Source of the DNA: a virus
Length of the DNA stretch: 64,000 nt
Reading direction: 5' to 3' (one strand)
Virus record (IMG/VR): IMGVR_UViG_3300032893_000001
Span: 24,183-88,182 of that record
The notes below the pieces were generated by a model. The model did no database searches. It worked only from the letters and a program-made list of their open reading frames with translations, and was not told where the DNA came from. Of this stretch, positions 1,611 through 49,447 are shown one piece after another. Each line of letters begins with the position of its first letter. Within the stretch, counting starts at the first letter, position 1. A program made the position numbers and the translations under genes.

Positions 1611-1621
1611 AGATTACCACA
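1611..1621 (-). promoter_or_regulatory. Candidate structural-strand promoter TGTGG-TAATCT (extended -10-like)
   Basis: Intergenic, 11 nt upstream of ATG 1599; matches TGNGGTAWYYT found before three other minus-strand units. Confidence 0.55.
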
Positions 1622-1695
1622 GGAGAACGCATCAAGACCTGGACGGCAGCCTGAAGTAGCCGAGGATTGTGCCGAAGGCTCCACCCTGAAAAAAA

Positions 1696-3021
1696 TCAGC
1701 CTAGCAAATTCGGGTTCCCACTGATGATGCTGCCTTGTACTCCCGTCGGGATCGTGATGAAGCCCGCGAGAGGAACACCAGGCTGAATCGGACCGGCCGT
1801 GATTTGAAGGATACAAGGGGCGCCCAGCGGCGGCATGCCAAGTCCGACGCCTCCTTGAATCGCGTCGCCTTGTCGTGCGACAGGCGTCGTGCCCTGTTGC
1901 AGACGAACGATGTCCCCCTTGATCTCCGTCGAGGGGCCGCCGTTGATCGTTGCGCCATCCGTCGCGGTCATGGAGATCGTCTTCGCGCTGAAGTCGAACG
2001 AGTCTCCGATGCTGACCTTCACCTTCTTTCCGAACTCGAAGTACGCGCTGCCCTTCGATCGGAGGAAGACGTTGCCAGCCTTGTCGAAGTAGAAGCGCAG
2101 AGAGACCTGCTTGACGACGCCGCCGTTGACGACGTCTCCGCTCACGGTCTTGAAGCCCTGCTGCGCGAGCGTGACTTCGTAGACGATGATCGGATCGAAC
2201 CCAAGGTTGCTCTGCGCATCCGCTCCGCTCGAGCCTGCATCTTCGCCCACCGGATTGAAGATCTTGCCCTTCGCGATTCGAAGATCGGCGTACTTGTCGT
2301 TGGCGTAGAGACGGTACGTCTGCATCTCCTGTGCGGGCGGATTCTGCACTGAAGGACCTTCTTGAATCCCCCACGAGACAGAACCGCCGACGTTCTGGTG
2401 TTCGTAGGCACCAGAGAGATCGAGAATCTTGTTGCCGATCGGAATGTAGATGCGCTTCGCAATTTCCGTCGCGCCGATCTCGATCACGCCGCCTCGATGC
2501 AACGTGATGAAGTTGCCATCGCGCGTTCGCAGAAAGATGTCGCCGGGCTTCGCAGGCGGTCGACCTGCGTCGAAGCGTGCGTCGACGTTCGGATAGGGAA
2601 CCGTCCCACCGCGCGACCGCGTACCCGCAGGAGCGTCTTGATCGTCGACGTTGTCTGGGTTCGCCGTTTGGCTTCCCTGCTGCGTCGTCACGATGGACTG
2701 ATTCGGGTCGTTCATCTTCGCGGTCGCGTTGGCCGTCTCCATCGGCGCGACGAACGACTGAACGTAGGGGGGAGAGCTGTCACTCGGCAGGCAAAGCATG
2801 ACCACGGCACCGACTTCAGGCATGACGTAGATGCCCTCGCCGTTGTTGTAATGGAGGTACGCCGCCGCAACCTGCACGTCCAAGTAGTACTTGCGGTCGA
2901 ACTGCGTGATGACGTCGACCGTCCAGTTCACCATGTTCACGTTCAGAACACGACCATGCACGATCTCCGCGGGGTCGTTCCCCGCGCGGTGGTGCAGCGT
3001 AGTTCGAAACCGTTTCGCCAT
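1696..3021 (-). CDS. Baseplate central spike / puncturing protein (gp5/gpV/VgrG-like) with PAAR-like tip
   Basis: N-terminal OB-fold-like segment (GRVLNVN..WTVDV..MPEVGAVV), beta-rich repeats, C-terminal PVARQGD...GSIISG. Confidence 0.65.
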   Translation of the reverse strand: MAKRFRTTLHHRAGNDPAEIVHGRVLNVNMVNWTVDVITQFDRKYYLDVQVAAAYLHYNNGEGIYVMPEVGAVVMLCLPSDSSPPYVQSFVAPMETANATAKMNDPNQSIVTTQQGSQTANPDNVDDQDAPAGTRSRGGTVPYPNVDARFDAGRPPAKPGDIFLRTRDGNFITLHRGGVIEIGATEIAKRIYIPIGNKILDLSGAYEHQNVGGSVSWGIQEGPSVQNPPAQEMQTYRLYANDKYADLRIAKGKIFNPVGEDAGSSGADAQSNLGFDPIIVYEVTLAQQGFKTVSGDVVNGGVVKQVSLRFYFDKAGNVFLRSKGSAYFEFGKKVKVSIGDSFDFSAKTISMTATDGATINGGPSTEIKGDIVRLQQGTTPVARQGDAIQGGVGLGMPPLGAPCILQITAGPIQPGVPLAGFITIPTGVQGSIISGNPNLLG

Positions 3022-3024
3022 GAG

Positions 3025-6000
3025 CTAGTAATGGTGCGGCGCGACCGCAGGCGTCTTTCCATGCGCCTTGGTGGAAGTAGCCAAGCCGAACTCGGCGCCG
3101 TACGCAACACCTGGAATCGGGTGAGCTCCGTGGATGTGCGAAGCCAGCCCCATCGAGGCCGCTTCCATCAACGTGTTGCGCAACCGCTGGTGCTGAAGCT
3201 TGGCCATCCAGTCTTCTTGCAGCGACAGCGGGAGCATGTCTACTCCCTGAAGAACCGGTTCGTGCAAGATCGGCTGCTTGCCTTTGAGCTCCGTGTCGTT
3301 GATCTTGCGGATCATCGACGTCGGGTAGAACTCGCCGCGGAGAACGTGCGGGTGGTCACCAGGGTCCTGGACCTTGGTGAGGTTGCTCATCGACTTGACC
3401 AGCGTCTCCACCGCGCGACGACGAAGCCCCTCGTCCTTGTACAAGTCGTAGATGCTGGCGGCGAGATGGTTCTGCACCTTCTCGATCGACTTCGTCGCCC
3501 GGTACAAGTCGTGCGGGTTGACGTACGTACGATTCGGATCGGAGAGCACTTGCCCTGCGTCGACGTGCAGACCAACCTCCGGCGGCTGCCATCCGACGTA
3601 GCTCTTGGCCGTACGGTCCGCATGCGGCAAGTCTTCGTGGAGCGGCATGCCGCCAGCGTCGCGACCGACGTGGTGCGGCTGCCCGTTCACCCAGATTTTC
3701 ACGCCGGTCGGGTCTTTCTCGATGCGCTCGATCTTTCCACTCGTCATCGCCACCGTCGCGGCGTTGGGAATCTTCCTCGGCAGCTTGGTGAGCTGTTCGA
3801 AGCGAGCGAACTGGTTCAAGATCTTCGAGCCGCCACCAGCCTCCTGCACGCCGCCGGTGTGGAAGCTCTTGAGCGTGAGCTGCACCGCGCGCTCTCCAAC
3901 TGCCTGCGCGGCCATGACGCCGACGTTCGTACCTAGAGGATGCAGAGCGCCGTTGACCGAGGGGCCGACGTCCATCTGGCAGAGGCCCTTCGGCATCTCG
4001 CACTTGAGCGGGCTACGAACAACGACACGCGCGTTCTTGTCCGCCGCTCGAATCTGAGCGACGAGGTCCGGCGTGAGCAGCGTATTGCGGGGAATGTGCA
4101 GGTTGCCTGCCTTGAAGTCCTGCGCGAGGTAGCGATCGTGCACGTCCTTCTCGCCGATGGACAACGATACACCGTTGTGGGTACCGCAGTCGTGCCCCTC
4201 GACCATCATGTTCATCGAGGTATTCATCAGGAGCTTCGAGATGGCGCCCGGCTCTTGAACCTCTTGCACCTTCATGACGGCGCCTCGACGCGCGCCATGG
4301 AGCTGCGTCCAGTAGCCTGCGAGATCGAGTCCTTCGGCGTAGCTCTTGGTCACGGGCGTCGGAATGAAGCGGTCCGCCGAGTCCTTGAGAATCATCGGCG
4401 CCAAGACCATCTGCTTGTACTGGTCCCAGCTCGGCTTCACGCCGGCGGCCTGCATCAGGAACAAATTCGACGGGTGCGCCGACATCGTGTCCGTGTGCGC
4501 CTTCTTCATATCGTCGGACGCCTTGATCCAGGCATCGACAGAGCGACGCTCCTTCTCTGCCTCGGAGATGTTCATCGCGTGGATCGCATCAACCTTCTTC
4601 TGCGCTTCGCCCAAGACCCGACCGCGCGCTGCCTTGTCCGGCGTCACGTCATCGAGGGACAACGAATGCGTGCCGATCGGCAACCACTTGTCCTTCACCA
4701 GGTCCGTCTTGATGAGGCCGAAGGACGCTCCGTTGCCGATATCCTTGATGTCGTTGACGATGCGACCGAACTCGTGTCGATGGTTGTTGCCCACGTCCGT
4801 GAGCAAAGAATCGAGCCCTTTCTTGTCGATCTTGAAGGAGAAGTCGGTGAGCATCTTCTGCTGCATCGCCTCCGGCAGCGCCGACGCAAGAAGAACTCGA
4901 CCAGGCGTCGTCTTCTTTCCCTTCATCGTCACCACGTCGGTGTAGCTCACAACGCCACGACGAAGAGCGTCTGCGACCTCCGCAGGGCTAGAAAAGAGAT
5001 GCTTCGTCTCGTTCCCGACGAGGGACAGCTTGTACAGCCCGAGCGCGCTCTCTAGCGTCGGTTGGTACATGACCTTGCCGGACGCCTCGTTGAAGATGTT
5101 GTTCGACGGGAACATCTTCTCTGCTTCTCGAACAGCTTCGCTGCTGATGGGAACGAACATCGCCATCGTGTCGCCGTCGAAGTCCGCGTTGTACCCACCC
5201 GTAACGAGCGGGTGGATCTGAATCGCACTTCCGTGAACGAGGCGGGGCTTGAACGCCTGGACGGAGTACTTGTGCAGCGCGGGGTCGCGCTTCAGCAGGA
5301 CGGGGCGCTCGCTCATGACGTGCTCGAGCGCGTGCCACACCGTGGGATCGTCCTTGCCCTTGTGTACGTCGGACAAGAGCTTCTGCGCTTCGAGCGGATT
5401 CTTCGCGAGGCCCTGAAGCACAAGCTGACGAACGACGAACGGTCGAAAGAGCGTGAGAGCGGCGTCCTTCGGAACGCCGACCTCGTCGAGGCCGAGAGCC
5501 GGCTCTGGAACGATCGTCGAGCGCATGGTCAGATCTTGTCGACGGGTGATCAGCGTCTTCTGGAAGAACCCTTCCTTCGGCTGCGACCCCTTGATCTGCT
5601 CGAGCAGCCCGCGCTCCTTGCGCTCACGGTTGAGTGAGCCGACGCCGACCAGCGCCTTGATGCCATCGTAGTAGTCGTCACGGAGCTTCTGCTTGCGCTT
5701 GTCCGTGAGGTTGGCCTGAAGAACCGGGTCCTTCAGCTTGTCGTTGACCTGTGCGAACTGAGCGTAGAGCCCGTTCACGTCCTCGTACTTCACGTTGCCA
5801 TCCTGCATCACCGTCAATGGGCGAATGACCGGAGGCAAGATCGGAAGGTTGTGCAAGATGTACGCTTCCGACGGCTTCAGATCGAGCTGATGAAGCGCCT
5901 CGAGGTACTTCACGCGCTTGAGCGAAGAGTCGAGCTTCGACGCAGATGCTGTGCGCAGCTCTCGACGAGCTCGTTGAAGTTCACCGGGAACCTCGATGCG

Positions 6001-9000
6001 ATCGAGTAGCATCTTGATGCCCGCGCCGCCGGCGACTCCATCCTTCGCAGAGACGATCTTGAACGTCGTCGGATGAACGCCGAGCTCACCGGAGACGACT
6101 CCATCGAAGTTCTTCTGGGTCAGCCCCGTCAAGCTCTTGATCGCGTTCTCGAACACCGGGTTCGGAACAGGCTCCGCAAGCTTGATGTGCGACCACTTCG
6201 TGCCGCCGTGCCCTCCCGTGACCTTCTCATCGAAGAGCCCGCCCGGCATCGGCTTGAGCTCTCCCGTCTTGTCCGCCTTCGCGCGAACGAGCTTGCCAGC
6301 GTCCTTCAGCTCACCGCCCGACATCGACAGAATGTGCTTGTCCGTCAACGGGGACAGCACGAGGTTGCTGCCATGCTTCTCGATGTTGATGCCCGCGCCC
6401 TTGAGCATCTCGGTGAACTTGTGGAAGGCGAACGTCGGCTTCGGAGGAGGAAGCGCAGTCCCTTCTTGAATCGCCTTCCACACGTCGATGTGCTGTGAAG
6501 GCCAACGCTTGGCCTCGTTCGATTGGGGATCGGTGCCTTCGCTCTTCCACGTCTGCATCTCGCGGATGTTCGCTCGAGCTCCGTGCGCCAGCATCGCGTA
6601 CAAGCCGAGTGCACCAAGACTCTGCCCACCTGCGTGACCGCCACTCGAGGGCTGAAGATTCATGTCGTAGCCCTCGGAGCCAGGCATGCCCGGCAAGTTC
6701 ATGCCGGAGCGGACCGAGAGCTTCTTCTCGACTTGATGCACGAGCTTCAGCATGTACTGCGGACCGGTGAGGGCCTTGCCGAGAGACTTCTTCGTGATCG
6801 GGTCGAAGAGCTCCTCGGTATCACTGATGCCATGCTGCTTCAGATCGCTTTTCACCTTCTCGAGGTAGTCGGGCGTCTTCGCATCGAAGTTCTTGACCAC
6901 GTAGGGCTTGCCGGTCTTTTCGGCGATCTTCGCCGCAGCAGTCTCGAGCATCTGCCCGATGTTCATACGACCGGGAACGCCCGACGGGTTCAGCAGCACG
7001 TCGACGGGCTTGCCGCTCTTGTCGTGCGGCATCTCGTGGTTCGGCAAGATCATCGTGACGATGCCCTTGTTGCCGTATCGCCCCGCCAACTTGTCGCCGA
7101 CCTGCATCGGCTCCGTGGTTCGCACGTGGACCGTGATCTTGTCCGGGCCGCGGTGAACACCGACGACCTCGCCTTCGAACTCGGAATCCCAACGAACGGA
7201 GCTGTCCGTGTGGTGTCCTAGTACGTGCTTGCGCATGGCAGCGAGTCCGGTTCGATCTTTCACCTCGAAGGGGCGCATCGCCACAATCAGTGGATCGCCA
7301 GGATGAACCTTCTGTCCGACGCGAACGACGCCCTTGTCGTCGAGCTTGTCGAACTGCTTCGAGTTGAAGACGCCAGGGTGCTGCTGGTTGAACTGCTTGG
7401 GATCGAAGACGACGTTGTCGATCTTGTCGAGACTGTGCTTGTGCAGGTGCAAGCTGGACAACTTGTCCGCCGCGGCCTGGCTGATGACCACGCCGTCCTC
7501 GAAGTTGTACCCCTTGAATGGCACGTACGAGACGCGCAGGTTCGTACCGAGCGCAAGCGCTCCGCCCTTGGAGAAGTTGGTGTCCGCGAGAACTTGCCCT
7601 GTCTTCACGTGCTGACCGACGCTGACTGTCGGCGTCGAGTGAAGGACGCTCTTCGCGTCGTTGAGCGGGTAGTAGTGGTACGTCTGCACCTCGTGATCCA
7701 CACCGTTCTTGTCCGTGACGATCACGCCATCCTTGAGCAGCTTCTTGACCGTCCCATCGACAGGAGAACGTTGCGACGTCTGATGCCCAAGAACGCGCTC
7801 GAAGGTGTCGATGCCTTCTGCTGCGACACCCGACGATACCTGCACCAACGGAGCCTCGCGGTTGACGAGGGAGATCGCTTGCTCCATGTGGCGGCTCGCC
7901 ATTCCCGCGCGGCCGCCCGAGTTGTTCCCCAAGAAGGGAATGAGGTTCGACGTCAGGTTGAAGAGCTGGCTCGAGTGCCGCAGAACGTAGTCCGCTTCTT
8001 GAAGCTTGCCTTCCTCGATCTTGTTGCCCTTGCCCACCATCTTTACGCGGCCGGAGGTGGCGTGGGGCTTTCCATCTTTCCACTCGACCTGGTCCGGCAG
8101 CGCGACACGACTCACAGCAAAAGTGTCTGGGCCGATGTCCTCGATACGCCCAGTCTTCATGTTGTAGAGCGGGATTCTCGCTTCGTTGCCGATCTTCTTC
8201 ACGCCAAGAGGCAGGCGCAGCGTTACCCCTGTCTTCTCTCCTTCCGGAGTGTTGATGGGATCGAGGAACCCGATGTGCGAAGGATTGATCATCTTCGCTT
8301 CGTTGTTGACACTGCGCTCCGTTTTGATGCCGCCAGGACCCATGATCGTGGTCTGCATCGCTGAAGACGCCATCTCGAGAGGGTTGATCTGACTGGCTGC
8401 TCGAGAGACTGCGGCTCCCGTAAAGAACTGTCGAATGGGCTCGTTGAAGACGTCGAATTTGACGACGTCGCGAATGCCGCTGACGCGTTGGCTGTTGAGC
8501 TGCCGCTGCACCTTCTGAGTAATCGGGCGCGCGACGCGACGAAGAGCGTCCTGCGCATAGTCGCCAACCGTCCTCAAATTCTTGAAGGTCAAAGAGTCGC
8601 GATCATCCTCTGGAGCGCCCGCCTGCACCTTGAGGAGCTTCTTAGTTGCAAGATGAAGAGCGTCCCCCGTCACGTGGTCGAATCGCTGACCGAGTGTGCG
8701 TTCCGTGACCTCGGGTAGAAGCCTGGACTCCTGCATCGTGTGGAACAGTAACTCCTCGACTTCCTTCCGAGACGTCGCCGGTTTGCCCGTAGTCGTCTTG
8801 TAGAACTGCTCGAGTGTTCCTGCCGTACGCTTAGCGTTCTTATTCGCGCTGAAGATCTCCTTACCCCACGACTTCTCGAGGTCGTCGTCACTCACCCCCA
8901 TCGTCTTGAGGAGCGGGTAGATTGGAAGCTTGGCCTTCTTGTACTTGACGGTGAACTGCTTCGAAGCGGGATCGAAGATGATGTCAAAGCTGCTTCGACT

Positions 9001-9411
9001 AACGACGTTGAACTTCGCGTTCAGTTCCCCGTTGTCTTGCCGACGAACGTAGACACCCGGCTTGAGCTGCCACTGGTTGTCGACCTGGTACTCCTGCCCA
9101 TCGACGATGTAGCTGTAGCGCTCGGTCGGCCGAGGGAGCTCCATCAGACGAACGCGTTTCTGGTCGATGACCTTGTTCGTGTCGTTGTCGCGCAGCGACA
9201 TCGTGGCGTAGACCGGCACCGCCCACGTCTTGCCGTCGATCTTCGCTTGGTGCTGCGAGCGAATGTCATTCGAGCGAAGGTTGTCTTCCACGTCGATGTT
9301 GTCGAGGTGAAGCGACAGCGTGCGCCCTCGGATCGGGAAGTGCGTCTTCACGGTGTCGACGACGTGGGAGCGCAGGTCTTCGAATGCTTCGTCGGGGTTC
9401 AGGTAGGCCAT
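3025..9411 (-). CDS. rpoBC: DNA-directed RNA polymerase, fused beta-beta' single polypeptide (2128 aa)
   Basis: beta motifs TPEGEKTG, GYNFEDG, GDKLAGRYGNKG, NPSGVPGRMNIGQ; beta' motifs LPILPPVIRP, RDPALH, catalytic NADFDGD (5170-5190), bridge helix HGARRG, trigger loop AQAVGERAVQLTLKSFHTGG. Confidence 0.97.
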   Translation of the reverse strand: MAYLNPDEAFEDLRSHVVDTVKTHFPIRGRTLSLHLDNIDVEDNLRSNDIRSQHQAKIDGKTWAVPVYATMSLRDNDTNKVIDQKRVRLMELPRPTERYSYIVDGQEYQVDNQWQLKPGVYVRRQDNGELNAKFNVVSRSSFDIIFDPASKQFTVKYKKAKLPIYPLLKTMGVSDDDLEKSWGKEIFSANKNAKRTAGTLEQFYKTTTGKPATSRKEVEELLFHTMQESRLLPEVTERTLGQRFDHVTGDALHLATKKLLKVQAGAPEDDRDSLTFKNLRTVGDYAQDALRRVARPITQKVQRQLNSQRVSGIRDVVKFDVFNEPIRQFFTGAAVSRAASQINPLEMASSAMQTTIMGPGGIKTERSVNNEAKMINPSHIGFLDPINTPEGEKTGVTLRLPLGVKKIGNEARIPLYNMKTGRIEDIGPDTFAVSRVALPDQVEWKDGKPHATSGRVKMVGKGNKIEEGKLQEADYVLRHSSQLFNLTSNLIPFLGNNSGGRAGMASRHMEQAISLVNREAPLVQVSSGVAAEGIDTFERVLGHQTSQRSPVDGTVKKLLKDGVIVTDKNGVDHEVQTYHYYPLNDAKSVLHSTPTVSVGQHVKTGQVLADTNFSKGGALALGTNLRVSYVPFKGYNFEDGVVISQAAADKLSSLHLHKHSLDKIDNVVFDPKQFNQQHPGVFNSKQFDKLDDKGVVRVGQKVHPGDPLIVAMRPFEVKDRTGLAAMRKHVLGHHTDSSVRWDSEFEGEVVGVHRGPDKITVHVRTTEPMQVGDKLAGRYGNKGIVTMILPNHEMPHDKSGKPVDVLLNPSGVPGRMNIGQMLETAAAKIAEKTGKPYVVKNFDAKTPDYLEKVKSDLKQHGISDTEELFDPITKKSLGKALTGPQYMLKLVHQVEKKLSVRSGMNLPGMPGSEGYDMNLQPSSGGHAGGQSLGALGLYAMLAHGARANIREMQTWKSEGTDPQSNEAKRWPSQHIDVWKAIQEGTALPPPKPTFAFHKFTEMLKGAGINIEKHGSNLVLSPLTDKHILSMSGGELKDAGKLVRAKADKTGELKPMPGGLFDEKVTGGHGGTKWSHIKLAEPVPNPVFENAIKSLTGLTQKNFDGVVSGELGVHPTTFKIVSAKDGVAGGAGIKMLLDRIEVPGELQRARRELRTASASKLDSSLKRVKYLEALHQLDLKPSEAYILHNLPILPPVIRPLTVMQDGNVKYEDVNGLYAQFAQVNDKLKDPVLQANLTDKRKQKLRDDYYDGIKALVGVGSLNRERKERGLLEQIKGSQPKEGFFQKTLITRRQDLTMRSTIVPEPALGLDEVGVPKDAALTLFRPFVVRQLVLQGLAKNPLEAQKLLSDVHKGKDDPTVWHALEHVMSERPVLLKRDPALHKYSVQAFKPRLVHGSAIQIHPLVTGGYNADFDGDTMAMFVPISSEAVREAEKMFPSNNIFNEASGKVMYQPTLESALGLYKLSLVGNETKHLFSSPAEVADALRRGVVSYTDVVTMKGKKTTPGRVLLASALPEAMQQKMLTDFSFKIDKKGLDSLLTDVGNNHRHEFGRIVNDIKDIGNGASFGLIKTDLVKDKWLPIGTHSLSLDDVTPDKAARGRVLGEAQKKVDAIHAMNISEAEKERRSVDAWIKASDDMKKAHTDTMSAHPSNLFLMQAAGVKPSWDQYKQMVLAPMILKDSADRFIPTPVTKSYAEGLDLAGYWTQLHGARRGAVMKVQEVQEPGAISKLLMNTSMNMMVEGHDCGTHNGVSLSIGEKDVHDRYLAQDFKAGNLHIPRNTLLTPDLVAQIRAADKNARVVVRSPLKCEMPKGLCQMDVGPSVNGALHPLGTNVGVMAAQAVGERAVQLTLKSFHTGGVQEAGGGSKILNQFARFEQLTKLPRKIPNAATVAMTSGKIERIEKDPTGVKIWVNGQPHHVGRDAGGMPLHEDLPHADRTAKSYVGWQPPEVGLHVDAGQVLSDPNRTYVNPHDLYRATKSIEKVQNHLAASIYDLYKDEGLRRRAVETLVKSMSNLTKVQDPGDHPHVLRGEFYPTSMIRKINDTELKGKQPILHEPVLQGVDMLPLSLQEDWMAKLQHQRLRNTLMEAASMGLASHIHGAHPIPGVAYGAEFGLATSTKAHGKTPAVAPHHY

Positions 9412-9428
9412 TGCGGGTGCTCTTGAGC

Positions 9429-9439
9429 AAGTTACCCCA
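9429..9439 (-). promoter_or_regulatory. Candidate promoter of the RNAP gene, TGGGG-TAACTT
   Basis: 17 nt upstream of RNAP ATG in a divergent intergenic region; fits TGNGGTAWYYT. Confidence 0.55.
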
Positions 9440-9473
9440 CGCGCAGAACGTCGAGCAAGACGAGTGCAGACGC

Positions 9474-9483
9474 AGGAACAAGA
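9474..9483 (+). promoter_or_regulatory. Candidate plus-strand promoter motif AGGAACAAGA
   Basis: Identical 10-mer is intergenic upstream of recA (30831); related to CGGWATAAGGG at 19818 and 24774. Confidence 0.4.
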
Positions 9484-9536
9484 ACTATGGCGAAAAACAT
9501 CGCGTTCGCCGCAAAAACGCAGCGTTGGAGAATTTG

Positions 9537-9665
9537 ATGACGAACTGCCCGATCGAGCCCGGCGACAACGCCGGCAAGAGGTTCGAAGAGATCATCGACC
9601 GGCTGTTTTGGAACGATGAAGACGTGGACGACGAGTGCGACGAGGAAGACCAAGAGGAGGACTGA
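9537..9665 (+). CDS. Small highly acidic protein (42 aa)
   Basis: GGAG SD then ATG 9537; MTNCPIEPGDNAGKRFEEIIDRLFWNDEDVDDECDEEDQEED; first gene of the plus-strand island. Confidence 0.6.
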   Translation: MTNCPIEPGDNAGKRFEEIIDRLFWNDEDVDDECDEEDQEED

Positions 9666-9760
9666 TGCTGCATCTTTTTGGCTGGGCGCTCTTGTTCGGA
9701 TTCCTTCACGGCCTGCGGGCCTGGATGCTGGAGAGGCTGCGCCATGATCGTACACCCTGA
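9665..9760 (+). CDS. Small hydrophobic (possible membrane) peptide, 31 aa
   Basis: TGATG coupling to the previous stop and GGAGG SD upstream; MLHLFGWALLFGFLHGLRAWMLERLRHDRTP. Confidence 0.5.
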   Translation: MLHLFGWALLFGFLHGLRAWMLERLRHDRTP

Positions 9761-10343
9761 ACAGGAAAGAAGCCGCTTCACTACGTGCGGCGGGCGGATG
9801 CTGGAGGAAACCTTCGGCCTTGTCGGCGTCAAGGTGACAGACCCGCTACGGGCCGACCGGCAGTGGACGCTGGACGGCGTCTACCTGCCGGTGCGCGGAA
9901 GGCTCGTCGGTGGCATCCGCGCGCACGCCACCGATCAGAAGGGCTTCGCGTCGTTCATCAACCAGCGTGACCTCGAGGTCCTCCTTGGAGTCGGTCAACC
10001 GGGGACGTACTGCCGATGGCTCGGGCAGGACTACGTCGACCCGCTCGACAAGGAACGTTGGTTCGGATTCGTGATGGATGACGATGACCTGACCGACGAC
10101 CTGTACGCGCGTGAGCAAGAAATGCGGCTTGTGCAGGAAGAAGTAACGGGAGCGGTGCTCTTGCCTGAAGGAGTCGAGCTCACGAGGCGAATCCACCTCA
10201 GCCCCGGAGTCGATTGCGAAGAGCTCCTGTTGTTCGCAGGAGAGCAGTGGTTCGAGAACGGCGTTCCAGACTTCCGCGTCGAGACCGCGGAGTTGCGCTG
10301 GCGACGCGTAGAAAGGATTGCAGTCGAATGGCGGAGAATCTAA
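9744..10343 (+). CDS. Hypothetical protein
   Basis: ATG 9744 with GGAGAGG SD; fills the operon. Confidence 0.7.
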   Translation: MIVHPEQERSRFTTCGGRMLEETFGLVGVKVTDPLRADRQWTLDGVYLPVRGRLVGGIRAHATDQKGFASFINQRDLEVLLGVGQPGTYCRWLGQDYVDPLDKERWFGFVMDDDDLTDDLYAREQEMRLVQEEVTGAVLLPEGVELTRRIHLSPGVDCEELLLFAGEQWFENGVPDFRVETAELRWRRVERIAVEWRRI

Positions 10344-10960
10344 CGCACGGACCTTTTGAAGAAGAAGACGAAGAGGAGGAAGAAGAAGGGCACCCAACCG
10401 AGCTCGTCTGCCTTCACTGCATGGAGCGCATCGTCACCGGGGAGGACGTCGCGCTGTTCCAACTCGTCGAGCCTTGGCTGTCGAAAGAGGACGGCGAGGT
10501 GAAGTACTTGATCCTCCGAGACGACAACGACGAACCTCTCGTCGAACCGGTCTTCTTCGACTTCAGTTGCTACGAAGAACTGGAAGAAACGATTCGAGAG
10601 CAACTCGAAGACGAGCCGCCGAACGTCGAGACGCACAGCGTTCTCGAGTGCGACTACTGCGGAGACAGCATTCGAATGGGCGAACGGTGCATCGCCGTCG
10701 ACATCGGAGAAGTCGCCTTCTCTCCGAGAACGCCGACGCTGAAAGGCGTCTGCTCCCCCACCACGACGTTTCTCGCCGCAGAAGGGGACCTATGGGTTGC
10801 CTGCCTGACGTGCGCTCGGCGTTTCCTTTCAGCAGCAGGAATCGAAGACTCCGATCTCGAGAACACCCTTGCGCAGGGAAGGGAATGCAAGGAATGCACG
10901 GCAACGAAGTGCTGGCGACACGGCCGCTGCATGTGCCGCTGCCATTGGAGGCCCACGTGA
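10328..10960 (+). CDS. Acidic multi-zinc-finger protein
   Basis: Poly-Glu N-terminus; CLHC, CDYC, CLTC, CKEC and CMCRCH motifs. Confidence 0.7.
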   Translation: MAENLTHGPFEEEDEEEEEEGHPTELVCLHCMERIVTGEDVALFQLVEPWLSKEDGEVKYLILRDDNDEPLVEPVFFDFSCYEELEETIREQLEDEPPNVETHSVLECDYCGDSIRMGERCIAVDIGEVAFSPRTPTLKGVCSPTTTFLAAEGDLWVACLTCARRFLSAAGIEDSDLENTLAQGRECKECTATKCWRHGRCMCRCHWRPT

Positions 10961-11253
10961 GTGGGCAGGGCAAGTTCCTCGCCACTCGGATGGCGCGGAA
11001 CCCGTACGGGGTGACGGACCATGTCGTCGAGCGCTTCATGGAGCGCTGGCTCGACAGCCGTCACCTCTACAAGCAAGAGGTGCGCAACCACATCAACCAG
11101 CAGATTGCAGCGGCGTTCAAAGACGGAACGGTGCTCGTCAACTACGACGGCAAGAACAAGGTTCCGATCTCCTTCATGGGCGTTGACGGGTGGGCCATCG
11201 TGGACTCCGCCGGCAACGTCGTCACCGTCTACACGAAGAACGAGGACAAGTAA
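10957..11253 (+). CDS. RelE/BECR-fold (DUF4258-like) small protein, possible RNase
   Basis: GTGA overlap, GGAGG SD; TDHVVERFMER near the N-terminus and terminal VVTVY strand. Confidence 0.5.
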   Translation: MSGQGKFLATRMARNPYGVTDHVVERFMERWLDSRHLYKQEVRNHINQQIAAAFKDGTVLVNYDGKNKVPISFMGVDGWAIVDSAGNVVTVYTKNEDK

Positions 11254-12467
11254 TGCACACCGTCGAAGATGTGATCCGAGTTGCCATCTCCGTTCCCCTC
11301 GGAGACCCGAACGATCCGAACTGCATGTGGGGGTTGCCGTTGCTCATCTGGGGGAATCCGGGCATCGGCAAGTCCTCCCGCATCAAGAAGCTTGCGGCGC
11401 TTCTGCAAACGTACGCGGGCGTCGTCCTGCCGGCAGGACGTCTTCCCGAGGACTTCGCGGGACTCGCAGTGCAGGATGGCAAAGGGGGCGTCAACCTCGT
11501 CAGCATCCTGATGGCGGTGCGTGAGCTCGTGGAGATCGGCGAGGGCATCTTGTTCCTCGACGAGATCAACACCGCCCGCAGCGCCGTTCAGTCCACACTT
11601 CTTGGCGTCGTACTGGACCGACGGTCTGGCGACGTCGAGATTCCTGGCAAGGTTCGTATCATCGCAGCCGCCAACCCTGTCGAGACCAGCGCCGGCGGCC
11701 ACCCGCTCGAAGCTCCTCTCGCCAATCGGTTCATCCATTACGAGATGGACAAGCCGACGGCTCGCGAATGGGGAAACTACGTGCTCGGCGTCAAGAACGA
11801 GGAGGAAGACGTCACGCCTCTCTACGACATCGAGACGAAGATCAAAGAGAACTGGGCGAGGGCGTGGCTCGAGGTTGCACCTGTCTTCGTGGGCTACGCA
11901 GAAAGGTTCCCGAAGGCCCTCGAGGACATTCCCGATGCGGGCTCTACAGAGCGAAGCAAAGCGTTCCCGACCGCGCGCACGATGGAATGGGCCGTCCGCG
12001 CAGCAACGACGTGCCGCATCCTGAACATCGGCGGGCAGCTCGAGTCCGTCATGCTCAAAGCGTGCATCGGCGCTGGTGCACGTGACGAGTTCCTCGCCTA
12101 CCGCCGCGACTTGAAGCTGCCTTCTCCGAAGCAGGTCTTGAGCGAAGGCTTCGAGCCGGACAAACGCCTCGATCGCAACTACGTCGTGTACATCTCTCTC
12201 GCTGCGTACATCACTGGACTTCCGCACAAGCAGGCGCAGGTCGACGCGGTGCTGAAAGCATGGCCGATTCTCCAACGTGGCTGCGAGGCTGGCTTCGCCG
12301 ATCTCGTCTACCCCGCGGCGGTCGAGCTCGTGAACAAGAACCTGAGCTCTCTCGGTGGAGAGAAACTGGCGAAAGCATCCGAGCCGGTGATCGGACGATT
12401 CGGAGATCGTCTGATGAAGAACGCGAAGAAGATCTACGACTACAACAAGAACAAGGAGGCCGTATGA
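11253..12467 (+). CDS. MoxR-like AAA+ ATPase
   Basis: Walker A GNPGIGKS, Walker B LFLDEIN, sensor AAANP, arginine finger LANRF. Confidence 0.9.
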   Translation: MHTVEDVIRVAISVPLGDPNDPNCMWGLPLLIWGNPGIGKSSRIKKLAALLQTYAGVVLPAGRLPEDFAGLAVQDGKGGVNLVSILMAVRELVEIGEGILFLDEINTARSAVQSTLLGVVLDRRSGDVEIPGKVRIIAAANPVETSAGGHPLEAPLANRFIHYEMDKPTAREWGNYVLGVKNEEEDVTPLYDIETKIKENWARAWLEVAPVFVGYAERFPKALEDIPDAGSTERSKAFPTARTMEWAVRAATTCRILNIGGQLESVMLKACIGAGARDEFLAYRRDLKLPSPKQVLSEGFEPDKRLDRNYVVYISLAAYITGLPHKQAQVDAVLKAWPILQRGCEAGFADLVYPAAVELVNKNLSSLGGEKLAKASEPVIGRFGDRLMKNAKKIYDYNKNKEAV

Positions 12468-34508: not shown

Positions 34509-34591
34509 ACGTCCCAGCACTACACGAAGTACTTCACCGCCAGGCCCGCGCAGACGAACGGGCCTGGCGTCAAATCGAACGGAGAATGAAC

Positions 34592-36728: not shown

Positions 36729-36730
36729 GC

Positions 36731-37523: not shown

Positions 37524-38242
37524 CCAGCCCCATCGCTTCGCTGACCCCGCAGAACGCTCCCCGTGACGTCGTGCTTCTCACGCGCGCCGGCCGCTTCGCT
37601 CTGCGCAACCTCGCACGCGCCCTCGGCTTGACGAACAGCGACGACCAGAACGTCGCCTTCATGGGAATGCCGACGGAGAAGCAGGCCGAGGAGATTCTCA
37701 AGGCGCTCCAGAACTTCGACCGTGCCGGTGGCACTCCCGAGGCACCCGCGGCCGCGCCCCAGCCGACGTTCACGCCTCCGGCGCACGTCAACGGCGCCAC
37801 TGCCCCGATGATGCCGGCAGCAATGGTGCCCGCGGCAGCCGCTCCGGCCCCGACGGCAGCAGCTCCGTCCGAAGGCAAGCGCCAGCTTCGTCGCACGCCG
37901 CAGAACAACGGGGCACCCGCCGCGGCCGCTCCGGCCCCGGCTCCTCAACCCGCAGCCCCTGTCCCGACGGTTGCCGCGAGCGTCGACCTGACGCCCGTGC
38001 TGACGGCCATCGGCAACCTCGAGGCCAAGGTCGCCAAGTCCGCCAAGGACGACAAGCGGGAGATCTTGGACGAGCTCGAGTTCCTCCGCAACCAGGTCGC
38101 CGTCTGCATGGGGCTGGTCGTCGTCGGGCTCCAGCAGAACATCGAAGCGTCGACGCAGGACTTGCTCGCCGCTGCGCTCGAGGAGGCTCCTGGCATTCAG
38201 GACGCCCTGGTGGCCATGGGAAAAGCCAAGAAGAAGGGGTGA
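37520..38242 (+). CDS. Hypothetical protein with Pro/Ala-rich linker
   Basis: ATGA coupling; strongly biased codons; terminator downstream. Confidence 0.75.
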   Translation: MTSPIASLTPQNAPRDVVLLTRAGRFALRNLARALGLTNSDDQNVAFMGMPTEKQAEEILKALQNFDRAGGTPEAPAAAPQPTFTPPAHVNGATAPMMPAAMVPAAAAPAPTAAAPSEGKRQLRRTPQNNGAPAAAAPAPAPQPAAPVPTVAASVDLTPVLTAIGNLEAKVAKSAKDDKREILDELEFLRNQVAVCMGLVVVGLQQNIEASTQDLLAAALEEAPGIQDALVAMGKAKKKG

Positions 38243-38300
38243 GCGTTCCGCCGTGGCCTGGTGCCCGGTGGCCGCGCCCCGATGACTTCGGATGAAGGGT

Positions 38301-38335
38301 GGCCAGGTACCGCGAGGTACCTGGCCTTCTTCTTT
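38301..38335 (+). terminator. Intrinsic terminator
   Basis: GGCCAGGTACC-GCGA-GGTACCTGGCC followed by TTCTTCTTT. Confidence 0.75.
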
Positions 38336-38343
38336 GGAGGCGA

Positions 38344-38940
38344 ATGGACACACTCGAATGGTTCAAGAACCTGTGCCGCTACAACGACGGCACCAAAGCA
38401 CCTCGTGAGCCGCTCTCCGTTCTGATGAGTGACGGAGACGTCTACACCTTCGGCACGGACTTGTGCTCGATCGTGGTGGCTCATTCTCTTCCCGGAATCG
38501 AAAGCGCGCACACGTTCGAGACAGCGAGCACGACCGAGCCGTTTCAGAAGATTCTCGAGGTCGTACGTGCTGCCCAAGAGCAGAGCAAAGAAGTCGGAGT
38601 TCTCGACGCGCTGCTTTTGAAAGAGATCGTGGGGGAGCCTACGTGGACCAAGGAGGAGGTCGAGGCCATCTGGGAAAAGGAGCAACCGAACGTCTGCATC
38701 GGGGACAGCTACTACACGGTGCCCGTACTCGCGCGAACGTTGGCCGGATGGCAAGAACCCCTGGCGAAGGTCTACCAAGCGCCTGCGTTCTTCATGCGCG
38801 AAGGAGGACGAGACGACCTCCTCATGATTTGCGGCAGCAACTTGCTCGCGCTCTGCGCGCCGTACTGGAAGAGCGATGAGCAGACCAAGCTGCTTACGGT
38901 CGAGCTCCCCGAGGGCTGGTTCGTGCCGAAGAAGGGGTGA
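38344..38940 (+). CDS. Hypothetical protein
   Basis: GGAGG SD then ATG 38344. Confidence 0.7.
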   Translation: MDTLEWFKNLCRYNDGTKAPREPLSVLMSDGDVYTFGTDLCSIVVAHSLPGIESAHTFETASTTEPFQKILEVVRAAQEQSKEVGVLDALLLKEIVGEPTWTKEEVEAIWEKEQPNVCIGDSYYTVPVLARTLAGWQEPLAKVYQAPAFFMREGGRDDLLMICGSNLLALCAPYWKSDEQTKLLTVELPEGWFVPKKG

Positions 38941-38958
38941 CCCCCTTCTTTTTAGCCC
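38929..38958 (+). terminator. Intrinsic (probably bidirectional) terminator at a convergent junction
   Basis: AAGAAGGGG-TGAC-CCCCTTCTT followed by TTTAGCCC. Confidence 0.8.
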
Positions 38959-46152: not shown

Positions 46153-46643
46153 TACGAGATGCGAGCGCTGTAGGTGATGCGGAGCTTGTCGTGCGTCGTC
46201 TTGTTGACCGACGTGAACGTCGCGCGCATCAGCGCCGAGCCGCCCGGCGAGGTGTGCTGGTTGAACAGCGCCACTTCCTGGATGTTGGTCGCGCTCTTGG
46301 TACCGCCACCGCTCGGGTAGCTGATGACCCACTGCATGGTGCGCGTGCCGGAGAGCAACGTCTTCGAGTCGCATGTCTTGAGCGTTCCGGTCACCGGGCT
46401 CGTGACGTTCGTCTGACCCGAGTTCGCCGCCTGGCTCGAGGTGCCGATGCGGAGGAACTGGAACACCTTGGCGTTCAATCCCGTCGCCTGGCGCCAGAGC
46501 TGTCGCTTGCCGGTGTTGACGATGAGGTTGTGGGTGCGACGTCGATCGATGACCTCGGGGCCGTTGTGGCCGTCGCGGATCACTTCGATGTCGACGTACC
46601 CACCGAGAAGCTCGACGTTGTCGTTGATATCACTGCTGTCCAT
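46152..46643 (-). CDS. Tail-collar / fibre-anchoring protein
   Basis: GGAGGAG SD; HNLIVNTG, IGTS, EVALFN and VNKT..L.ITY pattern; paralogue of 51422-52081. Confidence 0.65.
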   Translation of the reverse strand: MDSSDINDNVELLGGYVDIEVIRDGHNGPEVIDRRRTHNLIVNTGKRQLWRQATGLNAKVFQFLRIGTSSQAANSGQTNVTSPVTGTLKTCDSKTLLSGTRTMQWVISYPSGGGTKSATNIQEVALFNQHTSPGGSALMRATFTSVNKTTHDKLRITYSARIS

Positions 46644-48438
46644 GACCTGACTCCTCCAGAAGGGTGATGTTTTGCTTGGCTTCATCGATCATCTCTTGAG
46701 GGATGTCCCCTTCTTCGAGGTAGATCTCCAAGACCTTGCGAGCCCAGAAGAGCGCCTCCTGGTCCATGTGGAGCGCTCCGTACGTCATCGCGAGACGAAT
46801 CGCCGGGATGTACGAGTAGTACGACAGGTCGATCCACCACATCGTGAAAGGCGGACGTCCGATTCCGAGGGACGCGTAGCGGTAGAACTGAAGGGCTTCT
46901 TCGAAGCGATCGAGCTCGAAGGCCAAGTCACCGAGCCAGACCCAATGATCGGTGCGCGTCCAGTCGTCCGACACGCACTCGAGAAGCGTCTGCCGTGCCT
47001 CGAGCATCAGCTCGAGGTACTTCGCCGGCTCGCTTTCCTTGAAGGTCTTGGCCTGCTGCGCGAGCATCTTCGCCAGAACGAGACGCGCGTTGTAGCGCAT
47101 CGGGCCGTTGTTGCGCTTGAGGGAGAGGAACTCCCGCAGGCGGTCCATCGCGCGCTCCGGGTGATGCTCGCGCCACTCGATGGCCAAGTAGTAGAGCGAC
47201 TGCTCGTTCTGGTTGTGAAGCCAGTCGTCCATGAGCGTGATGCGGTTCTGCGCGCGGCGCTGCACAGCACGGGACACCTCACGCTCGTGAACACGCTCGT
47301 GGAGTGTCTGCACGTTCGGAAGACCGACGTCGTCACGGTACCCCTCGGGGTACGACAGGATGTTGTGCGTCGAGCGCTTGTAGCGAATCTTCGGATCGTT
47401 GCGGCAAAGCCACGGGAAGCCCCATCGCTGACGATTGCCCGCCGGACCGCCCGTGCGCAGAACACTGACGACCTTCACTTCTTGCGGAAGACGATCGAGC
47501 GACAAGAGCTCGTTGACTCCGGACAGAAGGTACTCGTGCCCCTCCGTCATGAAGATCCAATCCCCGGTGCATCGGTCCATGCACTGGTTGCGGATGTTGC
47601 CGAAGTGAACGCCGTTGGTCGCCTTCACCTTCTCCTCCCCTTTGCCCTCCGGGCTCTCGAGGAAGAAGACGACGTCCGCGTACTTCTCGGCGATGTCCCA
47701 CGTCTTGTCGACCGTGCGCGGATCGACACCGACGACCATCTCGTCGGCCACGCCACGGAAAGACGCCAAGGTGAGCGCGAGGTCTGCCTCTTCGTCACGG
47801 ACGGGGAGCGTCACGCTCATCTTGAAGTTCTTCGGGAAGCCGCAGACACCGAGCAGGAAGGCGGGCGCCCGCGTGTCCGGTTGCACAGGCCCCATGCATT
47901 CGACGCGCACGAACTCGAAGTGCTTCTTCAAGTCTTCGAGGAAGCTCTTCGCGGTGTACTTGATCGTGTGCTGCTCTTCTTCGTCCGGACCGAGACGATC
48001 GTTCGGAACTGAGAAGAAGCAGTACTGGCTCTTGGCGGCGTGGCGAAAGAGTCGCTCTCGCGCTTGCTCGGAGAGATGCTCGATGACCTCCGTTGCGATG
48101 AAGACGGAGGTGATCGGCAGCAGAAGATCTTCGGATTCGAGATCGACGGGCCACGTCGGCAGTCCTGCCTCTCGCGCCTGCGCGAGCGCGGCCGCGCTGT
48201 GATCTGCAACGGACACCGCGCAGCCCTGCTCCTTCAACAGGCTGGCAAGGATGCCGACTCCGCCACCGACATCGAGCACGGACGACCCGGTTGGCGTGAG
48301 CTCCACGATACGGTTGTAGACGTCCGCCAACGCCTGACCGCGCCAGCTCGAGCGACCTTCCTCGCTCCAGAGCTGGTCCCACTTTGCACGGCTGTTCGCC
48401 TCTCGTGCGTTCGACTGTACGGAAAAAGCAGCGCTCAT
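46630..48438 (-). CDS. SAM-dependent methyltransferase - GT2-type glycosyltransferase - TPR fusion
   Basis: VLDVGGGVG and TEVIEHL (MTase); LPVRDEE...ADEMVVGVD..TVDKT...FGNIRN...GDWIF (GT-A); C-terminal TPR-like helices. Confidence 0.85.
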   Translation of the reverse strand: MSAAFSVQSNAREANSRAKWDQLWSEEGRSSWRGQALADVYNRIVELTPTGSSVLDVGGGVGILASLLKEQGCAVSVADHSAAALAQAREAGLPTWPVDLESEDLLLPITSVFIATEVIEHLSEQARERLFRHAAKSQYCFFSVPNDRLGPDEEEQHTIKYTAKSFLEDLKKHFEFVRVECMGPVQPDTRAPAFLLGVCGFPKNFKMSVTLPVRDEEADLALTLASFRGVADEMVVGVDPRTVDKTWDIAEKYADVVFFLESPEGKGEEKVKATNGVHFGNIRNQCMDRCTGDWIFMTEGHEYLLSGVNELLSLDRLPQEVKVVSVLRTGGPAGNRQRWGFPWLCRNDPKIRYKRSTHNILSYPEGYRDDVGLPNVQTLHERVHEREVSRAVQRRAQNRITLMDDWLHNQNEQSLYYLAIEWREHHPERAMDRLREFLSLKRNNGPMRYNARLVLAKMLAQQAKTFKESEPAKYLELMLEARQTLLECVSDDWTRTDHWVWLGDLAFELDRFEEALQFYRYASLGIGRPPFTMWWIDLSYYSYIPAIRLAMTYGALHMDQEALFWARKVLEIYLEEGDIPQEMIDEAKQNITLLEESGHGQQ

Positions 48439-48701
48439 CGGTCTCCCTTCGAGGCGACGATACGAGCAAGCTCCGACCCGAATCCTGTCGCCAACGCGGT
48501 AGCATACTTCGGCTGACCTAGAAGCGTCGACAAGAAGATGGCTGCCAAGGGGTGCTGCCGCGCCATGCCGGCCTGAGCACCGCGAACGGTGTAGGGGTTG
48601 CCGAGGATCGAGCGTCGAACGGGCAGCTCCGCGCGGCGCGCGTAGAGCTCCTCGCGTTCTTCAGGGGTCAACCCCGCCTCGTACGCACTCATCTGCGGCA
48701 T
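48435..48701 (-). CDS. Small hypothetical protein
   Basis: 88 aa; coupled to the GT gene; candidate promoter 11 nt upstream. Confidence 0.55.
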   Translation of the reverse strand: MPQMSAYEAGLTPEEREELYARRAELPVRRSILGNPYTVRGAQAGMARQHPLAAIFLSTLLGQPKYATALATGFGSELARIVASKGDR

Positions 48702-48703
48702 GG

Positions 48704-49447
48704 CTAGGCTGTAGGATACCGCAGAAATGTCGATATCCCCTCATCGCTGACCAAGTCGCACAAATCAGGGCTTTGCAGGATGGTCTCGAACCGCGCGGGC
48801 TGTCCATCGAGCAAAACGTCTCGAGCGATCAGCCGAACGCCGTGGCTGTAGTCGACGTAGGTGTCGGAATGGCTGACGGGATTCAGCGGCTGAATCGGGT
48901 GCCCGGTGAGCTCGTGCCACCCGTAAATGGCGACGTGCTTCGGATGCTGAACGAGCTGCGGAGTGAGGACGATGTCCTTCTTGTGCCCCGCAAGCATGCC
49001 CGCGCGCCCCGCGCGCTGCTGCTCGATGATGACGTTGTGCCGCTGAAAGGCGTCGGTGCTGACCATCTGCGTGGTGGGCGCCAGCGGACGCGGAGTGACC
49101 TGAATCTCGGCCAGCCTCCAGATTTGATCGACGACCCTGCGCGTGGGCAACGTCGCGTCGAAGCTGTCCGCGATGAGCTGGGCCGTTCGTGGCCACATCG
49201 GCATTCGGATGAAGTCGTCATCCGTTCCGATGCAGAAGTAGTCGGGCAGCACGTCGAGCACGACGCAGTGACTGCCCGAGGTCAAGCTCACCTGAAAGGG
49301 CATCCGCATGAAGCTCGGGACATTGCCAAGCGCGAGCTGCTGAAGAATCGCGTCTTCTCGCACCTGCCCCATGTTCTGGTAGATCGAGGCCACAAACTGC
49401 GACCCCGTCATCGATTGATCAACGCGATCGGGAATCGTGAAGCCCAT
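48704..49447 (-). CDS. Enzyme-like hypothetical protein (possible cell-wall hydrolase)
   Basis: Soluble 247 aa with motif-like GHKKD, AIYGWH, IQP and HSDTYVDYSHG; function not established. Confidence 0.5.
   Translation of the reverse strand: MGFTIPDRVDQSMTGSQFVASIYQNMGQVREDAILQQLALGNVPSFMRMPFQVSLTSGSHCVVLDVLPDYFCIGTDDDFIRMPMWPRTAQLIADSFDATLPTRRVVDQIWRLAEIQVTPRPLAPTTQMVSTDAFQRHNVIIEQQRAGRAGMLAGHKKDIVLTPQLVQHPKHVAIYGWHELTGHPIQPLNPVSHSDTYVDYSHGVRLIARDVLLDGQPARFETILQSPDLCDLVSDEGISTFLRYPTA
48713..48723 (-). promoter_or_regulatory. Candidate structural-strand promoter TGCGG-TATCCT
   Basis: 11 nt upstream of SD-less ATG 48701 (same spacing as at 1611); lies inside the 3' end of the upstream gene. 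Confidence 0.5.

Follow-up and report, generated by a model that had tools for sequence, protein, structure and literature searches.

Two conserved classes of promoter-like sequence around a single-chain, bacterial-type RNA polymerase gene in an uncultured phage with its own sigma factor gene

The virion RNA polymerase (RNAP) of phage N4, a T7-like single-subunit enzyme, recognizes hairpin promoters; transcription of the middle genes falls to another phage polymerase. Polymerases of the multisubunit type also occur in phages: Iyer and colleagues described phiKZ-type phages that have their own polymerase and no sigma factor, and sigma-encoding jumbo phages that have no polymerase (PMC7824862). 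A phylogenetic study of metagenomic RNAP-encoding Caudovirales by Weinheimer and Aylward (2020) contains nothing on sigma factors, virions or promoters (PMC7481178). Virion mass spectrometry of Salmonella phage Arash (OQ632216) detected the RNAP protein gp206 most often of all (3516 spectra), together with β′ gp216 (1210 spectra) and the sigma factor gp10 (PMC10585845). Here we analyse a stretch of 64,000 nucleotides (nt; hereafter the window) from IMG/VR virus record IMGVR_UViG_3300032893_000001, which encodes a fused, bacterial-type RNAP, and the genome around it. We describe two conserved promoter-like classes, one (class A) ahead of early and replication genes and the other (class B) ahead of the RNAP and virion genes, together with their gene sets and conservation, a sigma factor gene, a single RNAP copy and a −35-like box shared by divergent sites.

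The window corresponds to bases 24183–88182 of a single virus contig of 184,953 bp with 61% GC, which CheckV rates as 100% complete; positions below refer to the window unless marked as genome positions. The phage belongs to the same group as Arash and the Vibrio phages D69, D148 and D181 (PMC10585845). Its RNAP is 31% identical to that of Arash over 94% of the length, and the two phages share the portal, capsid, terminase, the virion sigma factor gp10 and several structural proteins (blastp/tblastn E values from 0 to 1e-24 for the RNAP, portal, capsid, terminase and sigma factor). A further 69 IMG/VR loci encode the fused RNAP at 40–66% identity, on contigs of up to 195 kb with 44–64% GC. By description, these loci fit the mReC lineage of uncultured tailed phages, some of more than 200 kb, with deeply branching β/β′ homologues, identified with profiles of cellular RNAPs, and a T4-type capsid and terminase (PMC7481178). 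The phage group and the Arash virion proteome have thus been published already, whereas we found no published description of the promoter classes: the Arash paper does not mention promoters (PMC10585845), and we found no literature on promoters of this phage group.

Two conserved classes of promoter-like sequence

A first-pass annotation, made from the letters of the window alone, had placed the plus-strand replication and accessory units behind a GGWAYAAG core. This core matches the window 14 times, against 3.0 expected; four matches (9475, 19819, 24775 and 30832) are intergenic and lie upstream of plus-strand genes, and the other ten fall in coding sequence. Word enrichment over all upstream regions of the genome ranked ATAAGA, GGATAAGA and GGAATAAG at the top, beside Shine–Dalgarno sequences and T-runs. 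The aligned sites read (TA)GCAA, about 17 nt, GG(G/A/C/T)ATAAGAA(C) and, a few bases later, AAGGAGG and ATG, with a fixed spacing to the Shine–Dalgarno sequence. We therefore replaced GGWAYAAG with the bipartite class A pattern GCAA-N15-18-GGnA(T/C)AAG(AA). In the form GCAA-N15-18-GGNA[TC]AAG it matches the genome 18 times, compared with 0.3 times in Markov controls, and all 18 sites are oriented with the next gene. Eight are on the plus strand and ten on the minus strand, the latter preceding small minus-strand genes that include a sigma-70-family gene beyond the window; class A also heads many small genes at genome 107–148 kb and 160–164 kb. The four sites upstream of plus-strand units thus stand, but the proposed specificity for the plus strand does not.

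The four class A copies in the window, all on the plus strand, are weaker variants (GGAACAAG, GGAATAAGG and GGTATAAGG). One faces the accessory unit (GCAA-N16-GGAACAAG, 9455–9482), one stands at the head of the replication module (GCAA-N17-GGAATAAG, 19798–19826), one lies 35 nt before a DnaB-like helicase gene (GCAA-N15-GGTATAAG, 24756–24782) and one 63 nt before a RecA-like gene (GCAA-N16-GGAACAAG, 30812–30839). The orthologue of the helicase gene in the relative G003 likewise has GGGATAAG upstream. The 18 class A segments have no tendency to form hairpins (mean DNA folding energy −4.12, compared with −4.05 for shuffled sequences). At 9475, the core ends 5 nt before the ATG of an open reading frame (ORF) of only 16 codons (9488–9538 region, plus strand), and the next likely gene, encoding an acidic protein of 42 amino acids, starts at 9537.

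The minus-strand units named in the first-pass annotation, that is, the RNAP gene, the portal block, gene 985–1599 and a glycosyltransferase (GT) unit, are preceded by TGNGGTAWYYT, as it had claimed. The pattern occurs four times in the window and nowhere else in the 184,953-bp genome, always on the minus strand, at 11, 17, 44 and 11 nt before the starts at 1599, 9411, 19745 and 48701; shuffled sequences give 0.19 expected matches, a figure that flatters the pattern, which was fitted to its four sites after the fact. The first site (TGTGGTAATCT, 1611–1621) precedes the ATG of the 204-amino-acid gene 985–1599, which lacks a Shine–Dalgarno sequence. The RNAP site (9429–9458) consists of TTGCTC (9453–9458), 18 nt and TAACTT (9429–9434), with the ATG 17 nt further on and again no Shine–Dalgarno sequence. 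The remaining two are TGCGGTATTCT (19790–19800), upstream of the first gene of the portal block, and TGCGGTATCCT (48713–48723), within the tail operon and ahead of an ORF of 88 amino acids. A relaxed pattern adds TGGGGTAGACT at genome 95834, ahead of a long structural operon that starts past the end of the window and runs into it, and more sites at genome 99.3, 146.3, 150.9 and 160.1 kb. The conserved part of class B is GGTAnnnT, often GGTAnnCT, that is, a −10-like TAnnnT after G.

Class B sites lie 6–44 nt from start codons, many of them 6–17 nt from an ATG without a Shine–Dalgarno sequence, and in four genomes the copies of GGTANNNT at 0–19 nt upstream of starts number 32 in sense and 8 in antisense orientation. 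Genes begin 6–7 nt past TAnnnT, without a Shine–Dalgarno sequence, at genome 160123, 146289, 142004 and about 99340; at 1611 and 48713 of the window the distance is 11 nt. Unlike these class B-led genes, class A-led genes have strong AAGGAGG sites. Judged from its position, the 6–7-nt spacing would put the transcript start on the start codon, which is the geometry of leaderless mRNAs.

Both classes recur in the relatives. Expectation-maximization (EM) motif runs on all upstream regions were dominated by Shine–Dalgarno sequences and ATG, followed by low-information CTTCTT/AAGAA, and were less useful than word enrichment; on the regions upstream of the RNAP gene, EM merged the class A reverse complement with class B, and explicit patterns with random-window controls were therefore used for these comparisons, which cover 51 non-redundant relatives, or 52 sequences with this window. 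In 22 of 51 relatives, GGTANNNT occurs no more than 50 nt from the RNAP start, compared with 1.3 in random windows; for TANNNT the figures are 44 of 51 and 11. In 45 of 52 sequences, a class A core in reverse complement is present no further than 130 nt from the RNAP start; around the RNAP gene in the 52 loci, 105 class A cores lie opposite and 19 on the RNAP strand (40 and 0 among intergenic copies). Class B is conserved before orthologues of two non-RNAP genes and is present before TerL in the relatives G004 and G005. Three complete relatives and Arash each have 12–28 class A cores near gene starts, nearly all co-oriented with the gene, and more than 97% of orthologues retain their orientation relative to the RNAP gene.

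The cultured phages have their own forms of both motifs, with a (G)GTATAAG-type site at early and replication genes and a TAnnnT-type site at late genes in Arash and D69. In Arash (53% GC), the virion genes, RNAP and sigma gp10 occupy the strand opposite to that of the early and metabolic genes; ahead of early-strand genes, the most enriched word is (T)GGTATAAG(T/A)A, with 30 of 31 copies on the early strand. Unlike the sites of the phage described here, those of Arash lack the GCAA box. Its late-strand regions are enriched for TAAAAT, which takes the form GCTAAAAT upstream of virion genes including that for the portal, and the divergent region at the portal of D69 (44% GC) contains GTTATAAG and GCTAAAATA.

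The two classes meet back to back in both divergent regions, at 9429–9482 and 19790–19826, as the first-pass annotation had noted. At the RNAP boundary, the GCAA box of the class A site and the TTGC box of the RNAP site are the same base pairs read from opposite strands; at the portal boundary, the class A GCAA and the upstream end of the class B site overlap. Read on the RNAP strand, the shared layout is the reverse complement of the class A core, 16 nt, TTGCnn, 18 nt and TAnnnT, and it recurs in 12 of 52 sequences (this window and 11 of the 51 relatives), compared with 0.04 in random windows. The divergent class A and RNAP class B promoters, as predicted from these motifs, thus share one −35 region. 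Because a single GCAA/TTGC box is common to both, occupancy of one RNAP-boundary promoter would probably exclude that of the other.

Could one or both motifs be something other than promoters, arising from base composition, ribosome-binding regions, terminator tails or patterns drawn post hoc? TGNGGTAWYYT was written to fit four sites, most GGWAYAAG matches (10 of 14) are in coding sequence, and class B is so near start codons that a role in translation is possible. Class A, however, emerged from an unbiased enrichment, has a uniform orientation (18 of 18) and a fixed Shine–Dalgarno spacing, and is kept in five genomes and 52 loci; class B precedes RNAP orthologues in 22 of 51 relatives, against 1.3, and its fixed 16- and 18-nt spacings recur 12 times in 52, against 0.04. 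We consider a non-promoter origin very improbable. The two classes split the replication and early genes from the RNAP and virion genes, and the RNAP gene shares its class with the structural operons, a division already proposed in the first-pass annotation.

A two-barrel polymerase and a sigma factor

The RNAP gene (3025–9411, minus strand) is a single ORF for a single-chain β–β′ polymerase of 2128 amino acids. Its Pfam matches are the β domains Rpb2_6 (E 1e-60) and Rpb2_3 and, after them, the β′ domains Rpb1_1, Rpb1_2 (E 6e-30) and Rpb1_5, and the NADFDGD metal site at residues 1409–1414 (A1409–D1414) is invariant among 27 aligned metagenomic relatives, in all of which the RNAP is one chain. 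The presence of both the β catalytic barrel domain and the β′ NADFDGD motif identifies the enzyme as two-barrel, multisubunit-type, and not as a T7-like single-subunit enzyme of the N4 kind. The whole genome has one β and one β′ match, that is, a single RNAP copy; with this single set and a sigma factor, it does not encode the two-set polymerase pair of the phiKZ/AR9 type. Profiles for alpha and omega (PF01000 and PF01192) had no match genome-wide at E ≤ 1, whereas the control profiles matched in all of 14 genomes; the search did not extend to PF01193 or the alpha C-terminal domain.

The first-pass annotation had seen no sigma, alpha or omega gene. This is correct for the window, which contains none, but not for the genome, in which a gene for a sigma-70-family protein of 248 amino acids lies beyond the window on the minus strand (genome 146911–147657, contig G000:C1). 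Its product matches Sigma70_r3 (35.5 bits) and r4 (26.8 bits), both above the Pfam cut-offs, and its residues 32–187 align to region 2 of HrdB (residues 269–424; HrdB/SigA, E 1e-5). Regions 2, 3 and 4 of the sigma-70 family are all identified; profile searches with PF04542 and PF08281 gave no sigma matches. The protein is the orthologue of the Arash virion sigma factor gp10 (31% identity, E 3e-26). A search for related loci with the sigma protein returned none, and a search of the relatives' own records did find sigma. It is the only sigma-family gene detectable in the genome. A weak region 4 match at genome 18814–18888 was rejected as part of a MerR/excisionase-type helix-turn-helix protein of 248 amino acids (genome 18769–19515, plus strand, about 4.7 kb before the window), the sole plus-strand gene of the head module.

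A class A core immediately precedes the sigma gene in this phage and in the relatives G001 and G003, whereas G004 and G005 have no exact core there. In Arash, the class A core before gp9–gp10 is the only plus-strand GGTATAAG among 31. The sigma gene is also the last of an operon of large genes whose first gene starts 6 nt past a class B site.

A complex model of the sigma factor with RNAP residues 1020–1480 scored 0.80, compared with 0.45 for the best control. Of the solved complexes, 58 of 80 attain that mark, as do 2 of 110 mismatched pairs. At least 59% of contacts are common to the runs, with a partner pLDDT (predicted local distance difference test) of at least 74. In the model, sigma residues 35–78 are predicted to sit on a helical hairpin of the RNAP (residues 1199–1246), which is the textbook contact between region 2 and the clamp helices. 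Because the genome holds the orthologue of Arash gp10 behind its own class A site, the RNAP probably requires a sigma factor and does not act as one chain on its own.

Packaging of the RNAP and sigma factor would follow by analogy from the Arash proteome and from the place of the RNAP gene among virion genes; in Arash and D69 it is part of the portal operon.

Candidate readers of the two classes

Taken together, the layout is consistent with a staged programme begun by an injected polymerase, although it is no proof of one. In the reading that we favour, tentatively and as something just short of probable, an injected polymerase–sigma holoenzyme reads class A, and class B later drives the RNAP and virion genes, probably by means of the host main sigma factor. 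The RNAP and sigma factor would be made late, packed into the virion and injected; the injected holoenzyme would then read class A, including the sigma gene's own site, giving positive feedback. Class B would be switched on later to yield the RNAP and virion proteins, with some of the mRNAs leaderless or nearly so. The least certain step is the reading of class B with the host primary sigma factor, which could act on the host or the phage core.

The assignment of the sigma factor to class A is suggested because a sigma factor packaged together with the RNAP would have to act on the genes expressed first; it also fits the two-box layout and the base at −7. A T at −7 is a hallmark of promoters read by primary sigma factors. 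Class A has G at this place in 16 of 16 intergenic sites here, in 12 of 12 sites in G004 and in most sites elsewhere, and T is rare. The core also persists in genomes from 53% to 64% GC, and D69 retains only the GTTATAAG variant, at two sites. Both the G at −7 and the retention of the core in phages of different hosts point to a phage factor, and not a host-like one, as the reader of class A.

The opposite order of events would have the host holoenzyme read class A early to produce the phage sigma factor, which would then direct class B late genes with the host or phage core, the RNAP in Arash virions being carry-over. The two-box, 17-nt layout of class A is typical of sigma-70-family promoters, about half of the Arash sites read TGGTATAAG, near an extended −10 element, and a sigma gene behind class A resembles classic phage sigma cascades; the list of 116 Arash virion proteins also suggests contamination. 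We nevertheless judge this order improbable, as nearly all class A sites have G and not T at −7, the GCAA box is unlike TTGACA, and the core, with its GTTATAAG variant in the 44% GC phage D69, is retained across very different hosts. Moreover, the Arash RNAP and gp10 genes lie in virion operons and the RNAP has the top spectral count, and a late-specific sigma factor would make no sense if it were packed together with the RNAP.

For class B, the first-pass annotation had proposed a host-like extended −10 promoter. This proposal did not hold: the TG of TGNGGTAWYYT stands three bases upstream of TA and not one, as in TGnTATAAT, which is two too far, and the bases before GGTA differ among relatives (GCGC, CCCG, ACGA and others). 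Class B does retain T−12, A−11 and T−7. Its form in the Salmonella and Vibrio phages is GCTAAAAT(A), which is near TATAAT, and it is more AT-rich in phages of AT-richer hosts, a trend that fits host-type recognition and, equally, a T4-late-like phage factor.

The phage polymerase might instead read both classes, class A with the packaged sigma factor and class B later with the same core and an unrecognized phage factor or no sigma factor at all, so that host polymerase would be unneeded. Such an arrangement would resemble the non-virion polymerases of phiKZ and AR9, or T4 gp55/gp33 at TATAAATA. It would account for the conservation of class B across the clade, and phage late promoters typically consist of a −10 element alone, close to the start codon. 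When the T4 late consensus is compared with GCTAAAAT(A), the Arash and D69 form of class B is as near to the T4 late box as to a host −10 element. Both phages have a second annotated sigma gene (gp196 in Arash and VPHD69_0246 in D69), and many proteins of the present genome have no assigned function. The genome, however, has a single detectable sigma-family gene, with no homologue of Arash gp196 found in it, and one RNAP copy; with the RNAP gene itself behind class B, new core could be made only through the injected enzyme. We regard this alternative as rather unlikely. Among the possible readers of class B, we rank the host primary sigma factor first, an unrecognized phage factor second and the reversed cascade third.

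Several points weigh against the programme of an injected holoenzyme followed by host-sigma reading of class B. The class assignments for this phage are predictions from sequence. By sequence, the sigma factor might read either class: GG stands before the −10-like element in both classes, and promoters of group 3 sigma factors likewise have GG before a −10-like element. An unaided host holoenzyme on class B would express virion genes from the start, so an extra activator or switch must be assumed. A scan of positions 1–20000 for the sigma70 consensus (TTGACA-17-TATAAT) found one site where 2.6 would be expected, and it does not fall on any of the motifs. The definition of class B is loose, with about 9–13 sites here and the −35-like TTGC only at the RNAP promoter, and 60 of 87 upstream regions fit neither class under strict patterns; a search for a third promoter class in these 60 returned T-runs alone. 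The pass of the complex model may stem from likeness to solved holoenzymes, and the model does not distinguish the phage from the host core. Finally, the Arash virion list could include carry-over of abundant non-virion proteins: its 116 proteins include ribonucleotide reductase and ligases, and the authors note that carry-over of abundant non-structural proteins may occur (PMC10585845).

Gene layout and relation to known systems

Gene calling gives about 246 genes in the whole genome, nearly all on the minus strand, with few plus-strand islands. The accessory unit (9537–14424, plus strand; gene call and Pfam) comprises small ORFs, a MoxR AAA ATPase and a DUF2201/VWA protein. The replication module (19865–38940, plus strand) encodes, according to Pfam, an SNF2/ResIII helicase, the DnaB-like helicase, a DnaG primase, a family A DNA polymerase, the RecA-like protein and a deoxynucleoside monophosphate (dNMP) kinase. 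In the dNMP kinase gene (34963–36102, plus strand), HNH_3 and AP2 domains lie between two kinase stretches, which looks like a homing-endonuclease insertion or fusion.

The portal block (14458–19745, minus strand) has five genes, of which the portal gene (14458–16509) is the last, recognized by its match to Arash gp204 (30% identity, E 5e-87); the PHROG portal match is weak. The first gene of the block (19212–19745, minus strand) resembles Gp49/DUF891 (HigB-like) weakly, with a score under the Pfam cut-off. PHROGs and Pfam gave no matches for most of the large minus-strand proteins.

Directly downstream of the RNAP gene, on the same strand, a 441-amino-acid protein (1696–3021, minus strand) starts with an ATG at 3021, 3 nt past the RNAP stop codon; an alternative in-frame GTG at 2961, 60 nt inward, is preceded by GGAG. 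The collinearity and the 3-nt gap noted in the first-pass annotation are therefore correct with the ATG at 3021. The identity of the protein as a baseplate spike is a lead from a protein atlas, in which it resembles gp5/gpV central-spike clusters (score 0.94–0.95) and has fold look-alikes; it is a candidate gp5/gpV-type central spike with neither a Pfam nor a PHROG match.

The GT unit of the first-pass annotation is, from its domain matches, a methyltransferase–GT2–TPR fusion of 602 amino acids (46630–48438, minus strand). Located in the tail operon, it follows the 88-amino-acid ORF and a class B site of its own, and is possibly an added cargo unit.

Terminator-like hairpins close both plus-strand units: one at 14420–14457 (genome 38633), followed by a T-run and TTAGCCC, ends the accessory unit, and one at 38925–38958 (genome 63134), followed by TTAGCCC, ends the replication module. 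The module is conserved as a GC-rich hairpin with a 3′ arm ending in CCTTCTT or a T-run, directly followed by TTAGCCC(C); TTAGC[CT]C occurs at 17 sites genome-wide, 13 of them intergenic. Outside the window, the module often directly precedes the next class A GCAA box, forming a terminator–promoter cassette. The contig ends (genome 1–160 and 184794–184953) share a repeat of about 160 bp that differs at one position, the pattern expected of a genome that was assembled as a circle or is terminally redundant; in IMG/VR the record is labelled linear.

Arash and D69 differ from this phage in several respects. Their RNAP is split into two genes with others between them (Arash 130093–141261; D69 19968–27019), a 1525-amino-acid piece comprising β and the N-terminal part of β′ and a C-terminal piece of about 606 amino acids, whereas it is one chain here; in Arash, the intervening genes lie on both strands. 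Strand sorting is near complete in Arash, whereas here most early genes are on the strand of the virion genes. The second annotated sigma gene of Arash and D69 is not found in the present genome.

The first-pass annotation had also proposed an N4-like programme. The resemblance to N4 lies in the proposed logic only, in which an injected polymerase would serve the first genes and host sigma-70 polymerase the late genes. The enzyme type, the promoters and the number of polymerases differ: here a two-barrel, bacterial-type core with a sigma factor is the one phage polymerase, and class A has no hairpin tendency. Like this phage, phiKZ and AR9 encode a multisubunit-type polymerase among the virion genes that is probably injected for early transcription (PMC7598289, PMC7824862), but theirs comprise two sets of split subunits without sigma (PMC7824862), whereas here a fused chain is accompanied by a sigma factor and two-box promoters.

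More specifically, one could envisage, in a phage group that is widespread, a complete two-protein, bacterial-style initiation system, a β–β′ chain without alpha or omega and a sigma factor, both in the virion, which would read group-specific two-box promoters with G in place of T. The polymerase and virion genes would be transcribed later, from −10-only promoters and as leaderless mRNAs, with the shared −35 box as an either/or switch. This fuller picture is speculative, and we hold it doubtful in its entirety. If true, an own core, an own sigma factor and two promoter classes would make up a minimal natural sigma-dependent system, which could show core function without alpha, a sigma factor reading a −10 element that ends in G, and class switching with one polymerase. 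The cultured phages Arash and D69, each with its own form of both motifs, make these proposals testable at the bench, and the motifs offer a practical annotation of early and late genes for hundreds of uncultured genomes. The known multisubunit polymerases of phages (phiKZ, AR9 and crAss types) are sigma-free, and sigma-encoding phages normally use the host core; the present genome, in contrast, encodes both a multisubunit-type polymerase and a sigma factor.

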